64,000 nucleotides of DNA from a virus (lineage: Duplodnaviria; Heunggongvirae; Uroviricota; Caudoviricetes): positions 15,651 through 79,650 of IMG/VR virus record IMGVR_UViG_2563366977_000001. One strand, written 5' to 3'. This document shows, in pieces, positions 4,687-17,110 of the stretch. The position numbers were made by a program, and so were the translations under genes. The notes under the pieces were generated by a model. That model saw only the letters and a program-made list of their open reading frames with translations. It searched no databases and was not told the DNA's origin. Each line of letters opens with the position of its first letter. Position 1 is the stretch's first letter.

Positions 4687-5481
4687 TTATGGTTCCTTTT
4701 TAGTGTTGCTTTGGAGCGCATCGATCACACCTTGTGGCATGATCAAACTGATTGCCGGACTCATTACTTCATCGCCCAGTAGAGAACCGGTTAACGTAAT
4801 AGCTACAGCATTCTCCAGTCCCTGTTTGGCTTTTCCGGTAGAGTCCTTAACTTGCTGTACAAGTGTTGAGAGACTACTGCTCGTGTTGTTTATTGCATTT
4901 ATTTGTTCTGTTGCTGCTTCCACAGCGTCTTTTAGTGCTTTGATCTCTTCTTCTGTTAGTGCTGGTTGCTGTGTTGTTCCGGTGGAACTTCCGTTGCCTG
5001 AAGCCTCCCCGCTTGACGCCTGAACTTTTGCATTTATAGCGGTCATGGCTGAAGTGATTGGCACCAGTTCAAATGCTGCCAACGCGTCAATAAGCGATTG
5101 CGGATGCAGGGTATCTCCCATAACTGTTACGAGAGCAAATTCTGGCGCAGGAGATAACTCATTACCTTTGACGTAACATTCCCAGCCAATTTTCATCTGA
5201 AGTAATTCAGTTGGCGAAGTATACGGAGACAGCGAGTCGGCTAAATTGGTTGCTTCTGCACTGACAGTTTTCAGTTGTTCTGAAAAGACAGAAAGCTGAT
5301 TGACCCATGAAACCACCGACGCCGGGTATGCTTTATCCTTCAGGATAAGAGCCTGGATATTCTCTTCCAGAGAACTGGCATTGGATGACGCTGTTTTACT
5401 TAGCGTGATAGATGCAGGCGTAGTTGTGCCTGATGCATTTAGAATTTTGAATGCATTAACTTCAGCGATTGAATCAAGCAT
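4687..5481 (-). CDS. Hypothetical protein (possibly virion-associated)
   Basis: 264-aa ORF abutting PAAR-like gene stop; Ser/Thr/Ala-rich. Confidence 0.35.
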   Translation of the reverse strand: MLDSIAEVNAFKILNASGTTTPASITLSKTASSNASSLEENIQALILKDKAYPASVVSWVNQLSVFSEQLKTVSAEATNLADSLSPYTSPTELLQMKIGWECYVKGNELSPAPEFALVTVMGDTLHPQSLIDALAAFELVPITSAMTAINAKVQASSGEASGNGSSTGTTQQPALTEEEIKALKDAVEAATEQINAINNTSSSLSTLVQQVKDSTGKAKQGLENAVAITLTGSLLGDEVMSPAISLIMPQGVIDALQSNTKKEP

Positions 5482-5765
5482 TATGACACCTGAAAAATTG
5501 CCTCACCATTGGCGATGACTGAGCCACAAGAAAGGGGATCTCCCACACAAACAACTCCTTTCCCGCCTATTGCAAACCATGAGCGTGTCGATACGGCTGA
5601 TCCGGGGTGCGCGCTATTTCCGTCTGTATGGCTGGGGAACGCTCCCCCATCTACAACCACTGGCTTTCCATTTACGGTAAACCAGGAAACTGTTTCTGCT
5701 ACAGGTCGCGGAGGGAATCCTCCATGACCAGAACAAACTGTGTCACTGGTCGCTATTGCACTCAT
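5481..5765 (-). CDS. PAAR-like spike-tip protein
   Basis: 94 aa, Gly/Pro-rich with CSGHGG and repeated G-x-P / NGKPVV motifs resembling PAAR/DUF4150. Confidence 0.4.
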   Translation of the reverse strand: MSAIATSDTVCSGHGGFPPRPVAETVSWFTVNGKPVVVDGGAFPSHTDGNSAHPGSAVSTRSWFAIGGKGVVCVGDPLSCGSVIANGEAIFQVS

Positions 5766-5829
5766 CTAACACCTCCTTTTTCTTAAATCTTCTCCACTTT
5801 GTGATTTTCACTCTTCAGATTTCTTACTT

Positions 5830-6000
5830 CTCATATTTGTCTCTGATTTGTCTCAAACTGGTATCGTGGGCACATCATGTATCATCTAAGTCTCTTTTGT
5901 GTCTCTCTTGCGTCTCTAGTTTGATGCTTTTTACGCTATCTAACTTCTGGTCTTATTTTGTTTTCTCATATAAAATTCAATTCTTTCTCAAATGTGTCTC
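5830..6000. repeat. parC-like centromere: at least 6 GTCTC-containing iterons upstream of parM
   Basis: Repeated TTGTCTC / TGTGTCTC / GCGTCTC in AT-rich leader before ParM start. Confidence 0.45.
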
Positions 6001-13657: not shown

Positions 13658-14457
13658 TCGATCACTCCGTTTTGAGTGGTATCAAAGTTCCTGGCCGGGA
13701 TGCAGTAATACAGGGAGCCGACGTGTTGTGTTCCGTAGCTGAAGATTCGATGCACGTACCACCAGCGGCGGGCGAGGCCATTCGCCATTTCTTCGTTCCA
13801 TTCCAGGATTGAACCAACAGGTACGTTGTTTGCAGCAATACGCAGGATTAGCACTTCATCAGCAAGACCATCCTGTTCTCCATCGGCATCAATGGCATGA
13901 AACGAATCCCTTCCGTCCGGGTTATCCAGGACGTATACGATTTCCGGTTCCAGATAGGTAAGCTCACGCTGGTTGTTGTCCAGTTGCGTGAAAGACTCTT
14001 CACCTGTTTCATCGTTTACGACGCCATAGGTGCCATCAGCCGGGCGGTATAAAAGCGCCTCGAACGCGTCAGGGCTTGATTCAATAATGAGCATCCAATC
14101 GGCGCGGATCTGGTCGTTGAACGCTTTATGTCCGTTATATCGGGTTTTAAGCTGCTGGTTTGGTTCTCTGTTAGCGAGCGATGCCGGTAGGGGAGCGATG
14201 TCAGGTTCAATCACTTCCGTAACAGAGTCACCAGCATTATCAGGCCAATTATCATGGCTATTAGATTGGGTGGCGGCGTGCTCTTCCAGAATACTGAATG
14301 GCCCTGCACTGACATTCCCATTTTCCGTTGTGCTTCCTTCATTCGCTTCAACCGTCGTTGTCTCTTCTCTCTGCGTGCTGTCATGTTCTGTTCCCTTTCT
14401 CATCAGGCTTGCATCATCAGCAAGCCATTCATCAAAACGGCCCATAAGCGTCCTCAA
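13654..14457 (-). CDS. Hypothetical acidic protein, first gene of minus-strand cluster
   Basis: 267-aa ORF overlapping next gene by 4 nt. Confidence 0.3.
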   Translation of the reverse strand: MRTLMGRFDEWLADDASLMRKGTEHDSTQREETTTVEANEGSTTENGNVSAGPFSILEEHAATQSNSHDNWPDNAGDSVTEVIEPDIAPLPASLANREPNQQLKTRYNGHKAFNDQIRADWMLIIESSPDAFEALLYRPADGTYGVVNDETGEESFTQLDNNQRELTYLEPEIVYVLDNPDGRDSFHAIDADGEQDGLADEVLILRIAANNVPVGSILEWNEEMANGLARRWWYVHRIFSYGTQHVGSLYYCIPARNFDTTQNGVIE

Positions 14458-14608
14458 AGGTCGATTTATCAGGTATCGAAAGGAAGATTTTCGGGAGATT
14501 GTGATTTTGGATGGAGGAGGGGAATTGTTGCAATATGCACTTGCGCACGGTGCAACGGTGCGCTATCATTATGACATTCATTAATAATCATGGAGGATAA
14601 GATGATCG

Positions 14609-14911
14609 ATGAGCAAAAAGATTAACATAAAGAATTTCAGGGATGAGTGGCTTGATGATTTTTTTGAATTTTCAATACCACACAAAAAGATACCTTCTGA
14701 TATTCAGATTACATTGTTGCGGAAGCTGGATATTATCAATGCTGCAACTACTTGGAAGGACTTGAGATCACCACCAGGTAATCGGTATGAGGAATTGTCA
14801 GGGAAGCTAAACGGCTATTCATCAATAAGGGTGAATAAGCAATACAGGTTAATTTTTAAGTGGGTTAACGGAAAGGCCGAGGACTTGTATCTCGACCCTC
14901 ACAAATACTAA
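14609..14911 (+). CDS. higB: HigB-family toxin (plasmid maintenance killer protein)
   Basis: 100 aa; toxin-first arrangement with HTH antitoxin directly downstream. Confidence 0.7.
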   Translation: MSKKINIKNFRDEWLDDFFEFSIPHKKIPSDIQITLLRKLDIINAATTWKDLRSPPGNRYEELSGKLNGYSSIRVNKQYRLIFKWVNGKAEDLYLDPHKY

Positions 14912-14982
14912 AACAAATACCCGGCGGATGGGCCGGGTACTGACCAGAGTCCACTTAATACGCACGCTAGTAAGGGCAAAAA

Positions 14983-15321
14983 ATGAAACAGGCAACCAGA
15001 AAACCGACGACTGTAGGTGATATCCTGCTGTACGAATACCTGGAGCCGTTAGAGCTTAAGATCAACGAGTTAGCAGAAATACTTCATGTTCATCGTAACA
15101 CCGTAAGTGCTCTTGTTAATAATAATCGTAAGCTAACGATGGATATGGCATATCGCCTGGCAAAAGCATTCGATACTTCTGTAGATTTTTGGATTAATCT
15201 TCAGACCGCAGTAGACCTGTGGGAAGTCGAAAATGATATGCGCGTTCAGGAAGAGTTAAGTCGTATCAATACTGCTGAAAAATTTATTTCTCAGCGGAAC
15301 CTGAATAAAAAAGCAGCCTGA
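14983..15321 (+). CDS. higA: HigA-family antitoxin (XRE-type HTH)
   Basis: 112 aa with HTH (ELAEILHVHRNTVSALVNN) and HigA-like C-terminus. Confidence 0.7.
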   Translation: MKQATRKPTTVGDILLYEYLEPLELKINELAEILHVHRNTVSALVNNNRKLTMDMAYRLAKAFDTSVDFWINLQTAVDLWEVENDMRVQEELSRINTAEKFISQRNLNKKAA

Positions 15322-15340
15322 TATAGTAAAACACATACAA

Positions 15341-15366
15341 AAAGCCCACTTAACAAGTGGGCTTTC
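15341..15366 (+). terminator. Hairpin terminator after higA
   Basis: AAGCCCACT-TAACA-AGTGGGCTT stem-loop followed by T-rich tract. Confidence 0.5.
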
Positions 15367-15377
15367 CTTTGGAATTA

Positions 15378-15738
15378 ATGAACATTAAACCTATCCGTAC
15401 AGAACAAGATTATGAGGCCGCACTGCGTGAAGTCGAACCGATGTTCGATAACGAACCGGAAATGAATACCCCGGAAGGTGATTTCTTTGAGGTCATGTGT
15501 CTTCTCATTGAGGAGTACGAGAAAAAACATTATTCCAATTGAGCCACCATCACCTATTGAAGCCATTAAGTTCCGTATGGAACAGCAAGGGCTGACCGTG
15601 AAGGATCTGGAACCGGCTATTGGTAAATCAAATCGTGTTTACGAGGTGCTAAATGGGACACGAAATTTGACGTTACCTATGATTCGCCGTTTACATTCCC
15701 AGTTTGGCATTCCTCTTGAAAGCCTAGTTGGTGTTTAA
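15378..15738 (+). pseudogene. Second HigA-like HTH antitoxin gene split by a 1-nt frameshift in an A6 tract
   Basis: ORFs 15357..15542 and 15478..15738 together resemble one HTH antitoxin; they differ by +1 frame at GAGAAAAAACATT (about 15521-15533). Confidence 0.45.
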
Positions 15739-15799
15739 GTTTGGCGGTCTGGATGACCGCTTTTACCAAAAGTAAAGTTAAGAAGGTTTGATTGTTTAT

Positions 15800-16537
15800 A
15801 TGAGCAAAGATTCATCATTAGAAAATAAAGATGAAAATATCACTGTCAAGAATACAATCGAAGAAGCCATTAGAGACAAGTTATTTAATAAGTTGTTTGC
15901 ATATGTTGTGGTTTCTTTTTTTGTCGTTAACTGGCAGGATATTTTCATTTTATTTAAATCAAAGTACGATATATATACGACATTATCTATAGTATGGGTA
16001 GGTGATGAGTATAATATCCCCTTTTTGCCATCATTCATTTTGCCACCATTTGTAGCTCATTTTGTCATGCCATTTATATATGGCACTGTTGCGTCTGTTA
16101 TTATACCTTATGTTACGTTGTTTATATCGAAAGCCACAGGTAGAAATTATGCAAGGATACGATATCTTGATTATGAATTTGATTTGAAAGAGAAAGCCAA
16201 AATAGAAGATTTAATGTTTGATCTGCGTAGCAAAGAAAGCGCCAGATTAGATTTGGATGCAGCAATAGAGGAGAGAATAAAATCATTAAGTGCAATCGAC
16301 TCTAAGAACAAAGAGCTTCTGGACGACAGAGTTGCTTTGTTCGAAGGCATAAAAGCGATAGTGGATGTATATACAGAAAAAAATAAAAGAATCTCCTCGC
16401 CTGAAGATTTTGTTGATTTATTAAAGGCTGTGGAAAGAACTGATTTTTATAAGGATATTGGTTTGTCTGGCATAAATGATTTAATAGCTGATTTAAAGAA
16501 TACTTACGAAGACATACTTAAACCCATGTCCGACTAA
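15800..16537 (+). CDS. AT-rich two-TM membrane protein with cytoplasmic coiled-coil domain (defence/exclusion candidate)
   Basis: Two hydrophobic helices then charged helical C-terminal half; very low GC relative to flanks; own terminator. Confidence 0.5.
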   Translation: MSKDSSLENKDENITVKNTIEEAIRDKLFNKLFAYVVVSFFVVNWQDIFILFKSKYDIYTTLSIVWVGDEYNIPFLPSFILPPFVAHFVMPFIYGTVASVIIPYVTLFISKATGRNYARIRYLDYEFDLKEKAKIEDLMFDLRSKESARLDLDAAIEERIKSLSAIDSKNKELLDDRVALFEGIKAIVDVYTEKNKRISSPEDFVDLLKAVERTDFYKDIGLSGINDLIADLKNTYEDILKPMSD

Positions 16538-16545
16538 CGCTTAAA

Positions 16546-16563
16546 AGGCGGATTTTCCGCCTT
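16546..16563 (+). terminator. Hairpin terminator (GGCGGATTTTCCGCC)
   Basis: Stem-loop immediately after stop of the membrane protein gene. Confidence 0.5.
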
Positions 16564-16630
16564 GCTTTGATGACTTTGATGTAAAACATTTTTTCAGCTA
16601 TTTGAACACCATGATGGTGTTATTCGTGAT

Positions 16631-17110
16631 TTGTCATTTCTTGATGCTCATCAGGCTGTGTTTGTTCAGCAACAAGAAGGAAAGCAACCGATAGAGTATC
16701 GCTTTTGGGTTACGTACTCTTTTCACTGCTTCACAAAAGACTATGCACACCAGACTGAGGAAGAGAAACTGGCGTTAATGTACCACGCCCCTAAAGAGTC
16801 TCGTCCATTTTGTGAGCGTCGCTATAATCTTGCCAAACTTCACTTAAAAGAGGCAATTCTGTCATTGTCGGAAGGTAAGGTGATCCATGCCGGATACGGA
16901 AGCTATGCCGTTATTGAGGTAAATATTGGGGAGGGTAACAAGGAGTATTATTTTGTTGCGTTTAAGGCTTTCAGGGAAAAGAAAAAGTTGCGGTTACACA
17001 TCACTAGCGCCTACCCGGTATCAGAAAAACCAAATGGCAGGTCAGTGAAGTTTTTCGCAATCGCATACAATCTGTTAAGGAACAAACCGCTTCCTAAGCC
17101 ACCAAAATAA
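16631..17110 (+). CDS. Hypothetical protein, independent cargo unit
   Basis: 159-aa ORF followed by hairpin AAAGCCCACCTTAAGGTGGGCTT at about 17111-17133. Confidence 0.4.
   Translation: MSFLDAHQAVFVQQQEGKQPIEYRFWVTYSFHCFTKDYAHQTEEEKLALMYHAPKESRPFCERRYNLAKLHLKEAILSLSEGKVIHAGYGSYAVIEVNIGEGNKEYYFVAFKAFREKKKLRLHITSAYPVSEKPNGRSVKFFAIAYNLLRNKPLPKPPK

Follow-up and report, generated by a model that had tools for sequence, protein, structure and literature searches.

A frameshifted HigA-family gene in a D6-like phage-plasmid, probably the decaying orphan antitoxin of a displaced HigBA module

Why should a locus that already holds a complete toxin-antitoxin pair carry a second antitoxin gene, and why is that gene in two pieces? 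The question is raised by the stretch of DNA analyzed here, a 64,000-nt window from a D6-like (P1-related) Escherichia phage-plasmid, in which a toxin gene (higB), an antitoxin gene (higA) and a broken third gene of the HigA family follow one another, in this order, between tail genes. Phage D6 (MF356679) has the same three-gene order (orf70-orf71-orf72) and the same flanking tail genes, at ~91% DNA identity to the window, which carries an additional yjaZ-like gene downstream. In D6, however, orf72 is intact and encodes 119 aa, whereas its counterpart in the window has TT replacing C at codon 52/53. The original prediction had left open whether the third gene was a decaying orphan antitoxin, a slippage-regulated gene or the product of a homopolymer sequencing error.

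The two overlapping ORFs that had been predicted are both present on the + strand, at 15357..15542 (61 aa) and 15478..15738 (86 aa), the second being read in frame +1 with respect to the first, and the proposal that together they represent one HTH antitoxin stands, the pieces being collinear with a single 119-aa protein. The third gene is a homologue of D6 orf72, which is intact in phage D6 and in many plasmids; in a tblastn search with the 119-aa protein, residues 1-52 align at 15378-15533 with 100% identity and the remainder at 15496-15735. Since ATG 15378 is the very point at which homology to the toxin-paired form of the gene sets in, we take this codon, rather than GTG 15357, to be the start, and the repaired protein is therefore 119 aa long and not, as first thought, 125. 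The 5' fragment (15378..15542, + strand) consists of 52 native codons, which make up the two-helix N-terminal domain, followed by Ser-Asn-stop, for a product of 54 aa. The 3' fragment (15535..15738, + strand) continues in the +1 frame with the linker and an Xre-type HTH domain in 67 codons (Pfam HTH_3, E=7.9e-6), and itself lacks any credible start or Shine-Dalgarno sequence.

No NCBIfam model matches the third gene, and in Pfam HTH_3 alone does so. By sequence, the repaired protein matches HigA of E. coli and Shigella (PDB 5IFG_B and 5YCL_A, E=4e-8) across both domains, over residues 6-112, and its AF2 model (pLDDT 93) places helices at residues 9-24 and 32-51, a non-helical linker at 52-58 and an HTH domain at 59-117. 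With this model, the top full-length matches returned by Foldseek are E. coli HigA in the HigBA complexes 6KMQ (6KMQ_B), 6KML (6KML_B) and 5YCL. When repaired, the third gene is hence, as judged from these matches and from the predicted fold, a two-domain HigA of the E. coli K-12 type, and the layout originally proposed for it (an N-terminal dimerization/toxin-binding part and a C-terminal HTH) agrees also with the literature on HigA. The HigBA systems of E. coli K-12 and Shigella (YgjN/YgjM; 5IFG, 5YCL, 6KML, 6KMQ) and SehAB of Salmonella share with it the N-terminal helical toxin-binding/dimerization domain, the linker and the C-terminal Xre HTH. It shares only ~30% identity with E. coli-type HigA, however, and has a shorter N-terminal domain, consisting of a two-helix hairpin, in a protein of 119 aa instead of 138; the copy in the window, moreover, lacks a cognate toxin and is frameshifted.

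The main value of the present analysis lies in correcting where the frame breaks and what the split is. The frame change had been placed exactly at GAGAAAAAACATT, that is, at an A6 tract (15522..15527, + strand), with deletion of one A as the repair; neither holds. The six A residues are the codons AAA AAA of Lys49-Lys50 and are in frame: the nearest intact alleles (loci L014, L016 and L019-L021) have the identical A6 in frame (GAGAAAAAACATTACCCAATTGAG), and other alleles have AAGAAA or AAAAAG at this position. DNA alignments locate the lesion instead at 15533..15534 (+ strand), where the window has TT against a single C in all intact relatives (TAC CCA becoming TAT TCC A); compared with the A6-bearing intact alleles, this is the sole difference at the frame-break site. 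The result is a +1 frame change at codon 52/53, in the inter-domain linker, followed by the stop codon TGA at 15540-15542. Deleting an A would yield ...EKNIIPIEPP... and lose K50, H51 and Y52; in an alignment of 32 family sequences K50 and H51 are nearly invariant and Y52 is the family consensus. Removing the extra T instead regains the consensus ...EKKHYPIEPP.... A possible intermediate allele, TAT CCA, was absent from scans of GTDB and IMG/VR. The frameshifted allele differs from the closest intact allele by 10-13 nt, all synonymous in the repaired frame, with no second lesion, and each difference between the 3' fragment and the intact alleles is synonymous in the +1 frame. Because no further damaging change has accumulated, the frameshift would seem to be recent. 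We note that synonymous-only differences, besides being what one would look for after a recent frameshift, would be compatible with both halves still being in use.

The pair that precedes the third gene is the canonical toxin-first HigB/HigA pair that had been predicted. The toxin gene (14609..14911, + strand) is intact and encodes a RelE-like HigB of the PF05015 type, of 100 aa (Pfam PF05015, E=1.2e-34, 119 bits against a cutoff of 27; PHROG 3066, "toxin of TA system", E=2.1e-35), the exact protein occurring on 604 contigs in an exact-protein look-up. Its cognate antitoxin gene (14983..15321, + strand) is likewise intact, and its 112-aa product matches NCBIfam TIGR02607, antidote_HigA (E=7.9e-30, 102.5 bits, cutoff 47.7), and Pfam HTH_3 (E=7e-11), agrees in length with the 112-aa WP_000806445.1 gene at the equivalent position in relatives, and is found in exact form on at least 1000 contigs in the same look-up. 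The two genes form an intact member of the Rts1/Proteus vulgaris type of HigBA (PF05015 plus TIGR02607), toxin first and with both curated models above cutoff; the pair is unrelated to the family of the third gene, and its toxin and antitoxin genes are parted by a 71-nt spacer. Within this spacer RNA folding finds a GC-rich hairpin of 8 bp (14918..14939, + strand; stem of the ACCCGGCG/CGCCGGGU type, positions 14-35 of the segment 14905-14990, with z = -1.34 for the whole segment), which a terminator scan also flags. Upstream of higB, a repeat search detected an imperfect palindrome, GCGCACGGT-gca-ACGGTGCGC (14543..14563; 9-nt arms, 89% complementary), a possible candidate for the HigA operator. 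Downstream of higA lies a 10-bp hairpin (15342..15364, + strand) with the core GCCCACUU-AAC-AAGUGGGC, followed by UUUCCUUU, found by RNA folding (-15.7 kcal/mol, z = -2.60) and by the terminator scan. It ends 13 nt before the ATG of the third gene and is probably the terminator of the PF05015 higBA operon; an Rfam search of 14300-16700 gave nothing above the gathering score, with sub-threshold terminator-like matches only, at this hairpin. The promoter region, both genes and the terminator hairpin make up a cassette of 870 nt (14508..15377, + strand), and we infer that the PF05015 HigBA pair would be a functional addiction module, independent of the third gene.

The former partner of the third gene can be read from its relatives. 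At three loci (L015, L017 and L018) the identical 119-aa protein (P0005) is encoded 3 nt after a 100-aa HigB of the PF09907 type, toxin first and with the short gap, as in E. coli-type HigBA, and the RefSeq annotation of CP066033 has the same arrangement of PF09907 HigB and HigA. The PF09907 HigB of the relatives (the L017-type sequence begins MKIISVKTLRDFW...) matches E. coli HigB (5IFG_A, 1e-7) and PADLOC model PD-Lambda-2_A (1e-41). The 64-kb window contains no homologue of this toxin (best tblastn E=0.36); outside it lie a further ~30 kb of plasmid sequence, as well as the host chromosome, where a cognate toxin might still be encoded. Alignment of the window with L017 and L014 reveals that the cassette at 14508-15377 stands where related plasmids, such as L017, have 390 nt of promoter and PF09907 higB, and an anchor search puts the breakpoints where the shared GGAGATTGTGATTT ends, at 14507, and where homology is back, at ATG 15378. 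Because the cassette replaces the PF09907 toxin together with its promoter, up to the antitoxin's ATG, the third gene is an orphaned antitoxin.

We would make the distinction between this displaced module and PD-lambda-2, an anti-phage system (Vassallo et al., 2022; PMC9519451). PADLOC model PD-Lambda-2_B is matched by the repaired protein over positions 1-119 (E=2.8e-43) and by the 5' fragment over positions 1-54 (E=4.9e-12). In PD-lambda-2, however, the B protein couples a HigA-like domain with a peptidase domain at the C terminus, and the third gene corresponds to positions 1-119 of 402 only; it ends at 119 aa in all relatives, so that the peptidase fusion is absent. The HigB-like A component has its counterpart in the displaced PF09907 toxin and not in the window, and the downstream genes of the window have no PADLOC match that would stand for the P4-antitoxin-like C component. 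Because these further features of PD-lambda-2 are absent here, we regard the module as its plain two-gene relative, not as the defense system itself.

The exchange of toxins would leave the old antitoxin with little to do. It has no toxin to neutralize, it comes straight after a terminator, and its ribosome-binding site is weak (GGA only upstream of the ATG, where the paired context has GGAG); we infer from these three features that it may be under relaxed selection and decaying neutrally. A promoter scan found nothing convincing for the third gene, the closest + strand match lying inside higA, at 15095-15123. Sister plasmids show the same tendency. Among matching PLSDB records, 73 of 112 fall below 80% coverage, and the truncated ones listed all end at codon ~61 and are all flanked by PF05015 higBA; in 73 of the 91 plasmids with the orphan context, a deletion appears to have removed the HTH domain. 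The stranded antitoxin has lost its DNA-binding half twice independently, whereas every PLSDB record without the PF05015 flank (21/21) is full length and intact, and paired with PF09907 where inspected. In complete E. coli genomes 51 of 95 copies are below 80% coverage, and RefSeq labels HTH-deleted copies pseudogenes. The pattern is what one would expect if antitoxins are retained only as long as their toxins are there. It is with good confidence, then, that we suggest the third gene to be a pseudogenized orphan antitoxin of a displaced E. coli-K12-type HigBA (PF09907 HigB plus 119-aa HigA) undergoing ordinary gene decay, as one of the original readings had it.

The sequence of events that we envisage is simple. 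In some D6-like phage-plasmids the site between the tail genes holds PF09907 higB with higA 3 nt on; in the lineage of the window, the 870-nt cassette of PF05015 higB and TIGR02607 higA, bringing its own terminator, stands where that toxin and its promoter would be; the stranded antitoxin then gained TT for C at 15533-15534, which leaves a 54-aa product and an HTH segment that would go untranslated; and the lesion has become fixed and been passed on as the plasmid lineage diversified. The locus also presents a clean exchange of toxin-antitoxin cassettes at one hotspot between D6-like tail genes, with a complete HigBA of one family substituting for just the toxin of a second family.

Two independent lesions, one a frameshift (codon 52/53) and one a deletion (codon ~61), both drop the HTH and leave the N-terminal ORF open; together with a 66-aa PHROG family that consists of the N-terminal domain only, they could hint at retention of this domain and not at pure decay. 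A functional split could be built on such a hint: the 54-aa domain would still be made and would serve as a mini-antitoxin, free of DNA binding, against the PF09907 HigB of competing D6-like phage-plasmids, with loss of the HTH tolerated or even favored. We consider this unlikely, but it deserves to be set out. Both lesions, the second of them in 73 PLSDB plasmids, cut at the domain boundary, where the AF2 model has its linker (residues 52-58), and the N-terminal-only family, PHROG 10398, is matched with E=2.9e-40. In HigA of E. coli and Shigella and in SehB, it is through the N-terminal domain that the protein homodimerizes and interacts with the toxin (PMC7160566), and the orphan protein is identical to the PF09907-paired one in sister plasmids, its would-be incompatibility rivals. 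Orphan antitoxins have, furthermore, been proposed as anti-addiction factors (PMC7354431), and the present orphan resembles modules such as the chromosomal CcdA of Erwinia chrysanthemi in being a toxin-less antitoxin gene, here on a replicon in competition with relatives that have the cognate toxin. Unlike those orphans, however, the one in the window is visibly decaying, sits behind a terminator and has a neutralizing role that is hypothetical. The poor ribosome-binding site, too, speaks against its being made; the truncated groups are each nearly clonal, so that two events amount to a very small sample; the fragment offers no variation on which selection could show; and the N-terminal domain is just a two-helix hairpin. 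The more specific proposal, that the N-terminal toxin-binding hairpin of the old antitoxin is kept (as 54 aa by frameshift, as 66 aa by deletion) and works as a repressor-free mini-antitoxin, disarming the addiction modules of sister plasmids with which the carrier is incompatible, is at least as doubtful. If it were true, a mini-antitoxin would let toxin-swapped D6-like phage-plasmids displace their sisters, and in either case the locus is a simple setting in which the anti-addiction idea for orphan antitoxins could be put to the test.

Much less survives of the idea that the split gene is regulated by slippage, the full-length antitoxin being restored in part of the products either by transcriptional slippage on the A6 tract or by a +1 shift of the ribosome near AAU UGA. 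The frames do overlap at 15478-15542, where a +1 event would fuse the ORFs, the 0-frame stop comes just two codons past the lesion, and the HTH segment still shows synonymous differences alone. In the intact alleles, however, the A6 tract is in frame, and its length does not vary between the window and all 14 A6-bearing loci inspected (nine frameshifted, five intact); the product of an A deletion would lack the conserved residues named above. Six A residues are, besides, short for RNA-polymerase slippage. As for the ribosome, a +1 shift on AAU-U would, as read from the sequence, leave tRNA-Asn with a central mismatch; the GAGGAG ~25 nt upstream of the stop is too distant to stimulate +1 shifting; and no downstream RNA structure is apparent (fold of 15500-15580, z = -0.16). 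The family homologues listed, single ORFs of ~119 aa, point the same way, and we regard slippage as very improbable.

A sequencing or assembly error in the window record, with the gene really intact, is less credible still. Single-base indels are a common assembly artefact, and the frameshifted allele occurs in no complete PLSDB plasmid and in no complete E. coli genome. Exact-pattern scans also failed to detect it in GTDB species-representative genomes, IMG/VR and JGI metagenomes, collections that lack the carrier lineage; the exact-protein look-up did find it, with hits in 128 index blocks: 50 contigs carry the exact 54-aa product and 95 the 61-aa GTG version. From the contigs with truncated products, 24 were read and nine loci checked for the lesion, which was identical in 9/9, from distinct samples (assemblies at NCBI, metagenome assemblies at ENA, and SRA runs re-assembled independently in Logan). 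The lesion lies outside any homopolymer run, contrary to the original suggestion of a homopolymer error, and it occurs in two different 3' contexts and on flanks that are 3-28 SNPs per 6.2 kb apart (seven loci aligning gap-free), while inside the third gene these seven loci have zero differences from the window. Because nine loci from different samples share it on diverged flanks, the lesion is inherited and not a sequencing error; it is fixed in a diversified plasmid lineage. We would therefore annotate the gene as a frameshifted HigA-family antitoxin with its lesion at 15533-15534, a genuine inherited pseudogene and not an artefact or a site of regulatory slippage. As a point against plain decay, the frameshifted allele is found on 50-95 contigs, more than the 8 that the cluster table gives (12 were read) for the nearest intact progenitor. 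The two frameshifted subtypes differ at five 3'-terminal sites only, four of them synonymous and the fifth the stop codon, and at least some of these sites are also found in intact alleles, a distribution consistent with recombination.

Finally, the third gene might be thought to act on the 245-aa membrane/coiled-coil gene downstream of it (15800-16537), as antitoxin or regulator in an antitoxin-first pair, given that the two are neighbors on one strand in D6 as well as in the window and several plasmids, but we reject this hardly tenable pairing because the genes vary independently, the 245-aa gene being missing beside intact (L014-L018) and frameshifted (L007, L010) copies and present elsewhere beside intact, frameshifted and deleted copies alike. 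The 245-aa gene has, moreover, no PADLOC or Pfam match, and a conserved terminator hairpin stands between the two. This hairpin, GGCGGTC-TGGA-TGACCGC with a T-run (15744..15765, + strand), was recognized by reading the sequence and comparing contexts; since it is kept in the paired and orphan contexts compared (L014, L017, L007, L001, L002 and L022), it probably served the ancestral higBA operon as its native terminator.

We conclude that the third gene of the antitoxin locus is an orphaned E. coli-type HigA gene, separated from its cognate PF09907 HigB toxin and bearing a real, inherited frameshift; the gene belongs to a known family and is an ordinary pseudogene, adjoining an intact and unrelated HigBA pair. 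In a sequence search, positions 14300-16600 are ~91% identical to Escherichia phage D6 and also match 118 PLSDB plasmids from Escherichia, Salmonella and Shigella, nearly all non-mobilizable, while the first 25 kb of the window are 97-98% identical to D6-like plasmid prophages of E. coli and E. marmotae. The locus is flanked by tail and baseplate genes in divergent orientation, which are homologous to genes 7 and 25 of P1, and is annotated in D6 as a RelE-family toxin (orf70) followed by two HigA genes (orf71 and orf72).

The two overlapping ORFs of the third gene (15357-15542, 61 aa; 15478-15738, 86 aa, in the +1 frame) were originally predicted to form one antitoxin, and they are indeed collinear with the single 119-aa product that relatives encode at this position, which tblastn places on 15378-15533 and 15496-15735 in two frames. 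ATG 15378 is exactly where homology to the toxin-paired gene sets in, and we therefore take it as the true start, giving a repaired protein of 119 aa. The frame change had been assigned exactly to the A6 tract (15522-15527). D6 and two plasmids read GAG AAG AAA CAT TAC CCA ATT here and the window reads GAG AAA AAA CAT TAT TCC AAT TGA; more tellingly, the closest intact allele, found in five loci, carries the same A6 tract in frame (GAGAAAAAACATTACCCAATTGAG) and differs from the window at the break site solely in having one C instead of TT (15533-15534). Judged from this comparison, the predicted position is off by 6-12 nt. The proposed repair, a 125-aa fusion obtained by removing one A, fails as well: it yields EKNIIPIEPP, replacing K50 and H51 (each conserved to at least 90% in an alignment of 32 sequences) and the consensus Y52, whereas deleting the extra T restores the family sequence EKKHYPIEPP.

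Both domains of the repaired protein match HigA of E. coli and Shigella (5IFG_B, 5YCL_A; E=4e-8), and a Foldseek search with the AlphaFold model of this protein (pLDDT 93) gave full-length hits only to E. coli and Shigella HigA structures. In the model, helices 9-24 and 32-51 are followed by a linker without helix (52-58) and an HTH domain of five helices (59-117). In this class the N-terminal domain mediates homodimerisation and toxin interaction, and the C-terminal HTH binds DNA (PMC7160566), so that the predicted domain order is correct. The family has at least 7999 hits across the Enterobacterales, of ~119 aa among the matches listed. In PADLOC the protein also matches PD-lambda-2B (E=2.8e-43) over the first 119 of 402 profile positions, which form the HigA-like portion of the fusion of HigA with a peptidase that Vassallo et al. 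reported (PMC9519451); unlike in PD-lambda-2, the peptidase domain and component C are missing at the window locus.

PF09907 HigB is the toxin with which HigA of the 119-aa class naturally pairs, from which we infer that a PF09907 higB-higA pair was ancestral. An identical 119-aa protein occurs in two contexts among relatives: in L015, L017 and L018 it starts 3 nt past a 100-aa PF09907 HigB gene, and in L014, L016 and L020, as in the window, it lies behind a PF05015 higBA pair. The relatives' PF09907 HigB resembles PD-lambda-2A (1e-41) as well as HigB of E. coli (1e-7), and the same HigB and HigA pair is annotated by RefSeq in CP066033. Aligned with L017, the window shares sequence as far as 14507, and then from ATG 15378 onwards; the interval holds 870 nt in the window (promoter region, PF05015 higB, higA and a terminator hairpin) and 390 nt in L017 (promoter and PF09907 higB). 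A PF05015 cassette would thus have replaced the toxin alone of the ancestral pair. A hairpin directly 3' of the third-gene stop (15744-15765; GGCGGTC-TGGA-TGACCGC plus a T-run) is kept in the paired and orphan contexts compared, and is for that reason probably the terminator of the ancestral operon.

The PF05015 pair is canonical and toxin-first, as predicted: gene 1 (14609-14911, 100 aa) matches PF05015 (E=1.2e-34), gene 2 (14983-15321, 112 aa) matches TIGR02607 (E=7.9e-30), and proteins identical to each occur on hundreds of contigs, so that the pair is real and intact. Its unusually long 71-nt spacer holds a GC-rich 8-bp hairpin (14918-14939), with one loop base different in L014, which might set the toxin:antitoxin expression ratio or serve as an mRNA processing site. 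An imperfect palindrome ~45 nt 5' of higB (14543-14563; GCGCACGGT-gca-ACGGTGCGC) is a candidate HigA operator.

Decay of an orphan antitoxin is the reading of the original prediction that we retain: tblastn finds no PF09907 homologue encoded in the window, and all disrupted copies seen, frameshifted or deleted, are in the orphan context, while all paired copies are intact. Each disrupted group is nearly clonal, so these represent about two independent events. Of 112 PLSDB records matching the third gene, 39 are full length, 18 with the PF05015 flank and 21 beginning at the ATG, which in inspected loci (L022, L015, L017, L018) corresponds to the PF09907-paired context. Coverage of the gene stays below 80% in the other 73; among the matches listed, all partial records end at codon ~61 and have the PF05015 flank. 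Complete E. coli genomes hold 44 full-length and 51 truncated copies. In truncated copies, which PGAP flags as pseudogenes, the gene runs into a different allele of the gene downstream, with loss of the HTH domain. Expression of the third gene is probably low, given a terminator hairpin upstream (15342-15364; 10 bp, U-rich tail, z = -2.6), ending 13 nt before the ATG, and a ribosome-binding site consisting only of GGA; the paired context has GGAG, located within the toxin gene.

A minority possibility is that the N-terminal hairpin is kept by itself as a mini-antitoxin, countering the PF09907 HigB carried by competing sister plasmids; this would amount to anti-addiction, a role that has been proposed for orphan antitoxins (PMC7354431). 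The N-terminal domain ORF survives both independent lesions; the frameshift falls at codon 52/53, the first linker residues, and hence leaves a 54-aa product consisting of the complete hairpin plus Ser-Asn. Moreover, PHROG 10398 (E=2.9e-40) is a 66-position family covering only the N-terminal domain, and its existence suggests that the HTH-deletion variant (L004 5039-5233) is frequent in phage records, as an "unknown function" family of its own. Regulated slippage fares worse than either decay or a mini-antitoxin: the A6 tract is equally long in the window and in each of the 14 A6-bearing loci inspected, RNA folding found no downstream structure at the frame break, and homologues are undivided among the matches listed. 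As for +1 shifting, the sole Shine-Dalgarno-like element lies ~25 nt upstream of the stop, and tRNA-Asn re-pairing from AAU to AUU would leave a central mismatch. A homopolymer sequencing error is dismissed by the identical TT lesion in all nine retrieved loci, drawn from distinct NCBI assemblies, ENA metagenome assemblies and Logan re-assemblies of SRA runs, on diverged flanks.

Per 6.2 kb, these flanks carry 3-28 SNPs relative to the window, in differing patterns (seven loci aligning without gaps), and L007 and L010 have a different gene 3' end and lack the two downstream genes; the lesion has therefore been inherited and kept through diversification and at least one recombination event. The exact 54-aa product is found on 50 contigs (as a "hypothetical protein" in Escherichia sp. 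KTE52) and a 61-aa GTG-started version on 95 contigs (128 index blocks). The frameshifted allele is absent from complete plasmids (PLSDB) and complete E. coli genomes, where the best match is 96.9% identical without the insertion. Against the closest intact allele there are 10-13 differences, every one of them synonymous once the frame is repaired and most of them common to other intact alleles, which makes the frameshift young relative to allele divergence.

Comparison of window 14508-15377 with L017 2611-3000 and across relatives distinguishes at least four locus states: a PF09907 higB-higA pair, or PF05015 higBA with an orphan higA that is intact, frameshifted or HTH-deleted, each with downstream genes present or absent. 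On this comparison, the site between the tail genes is a hotspot of exchange in D6-like phage-plasmids. Downstream in the window, 15800-16537 (+ strand) encodes a 245-aa protein that has hydrophobic segments in its N-terminal part and a C-terminal half that looks like a coiled coil. It falls in PHROG 8191 ("unknown function"; E=1.5e-107), and Pfam, NCBIfam and PADLOC gave no match; its gene is highly allelic, present or absent independently of the antitoxin state. A 159-aa YjaZ-like gene (16631-17110, + strand) follows, matching NF007263 "stationary phase growth adaptation protein" (E=4.4e-87) at 290.7 bits, under the 324-bit cutoff, and PF27200 in relatives; it occurs in some relatives only and is missing from D6. 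Slightly downstream of the intact orphan in L016, on the opposite strand (5006-5930), a HigB-like Gp49 gene (PF05973) and two HTH_3 genes form a further, putative TA-like cluster in the same tail-gene region.
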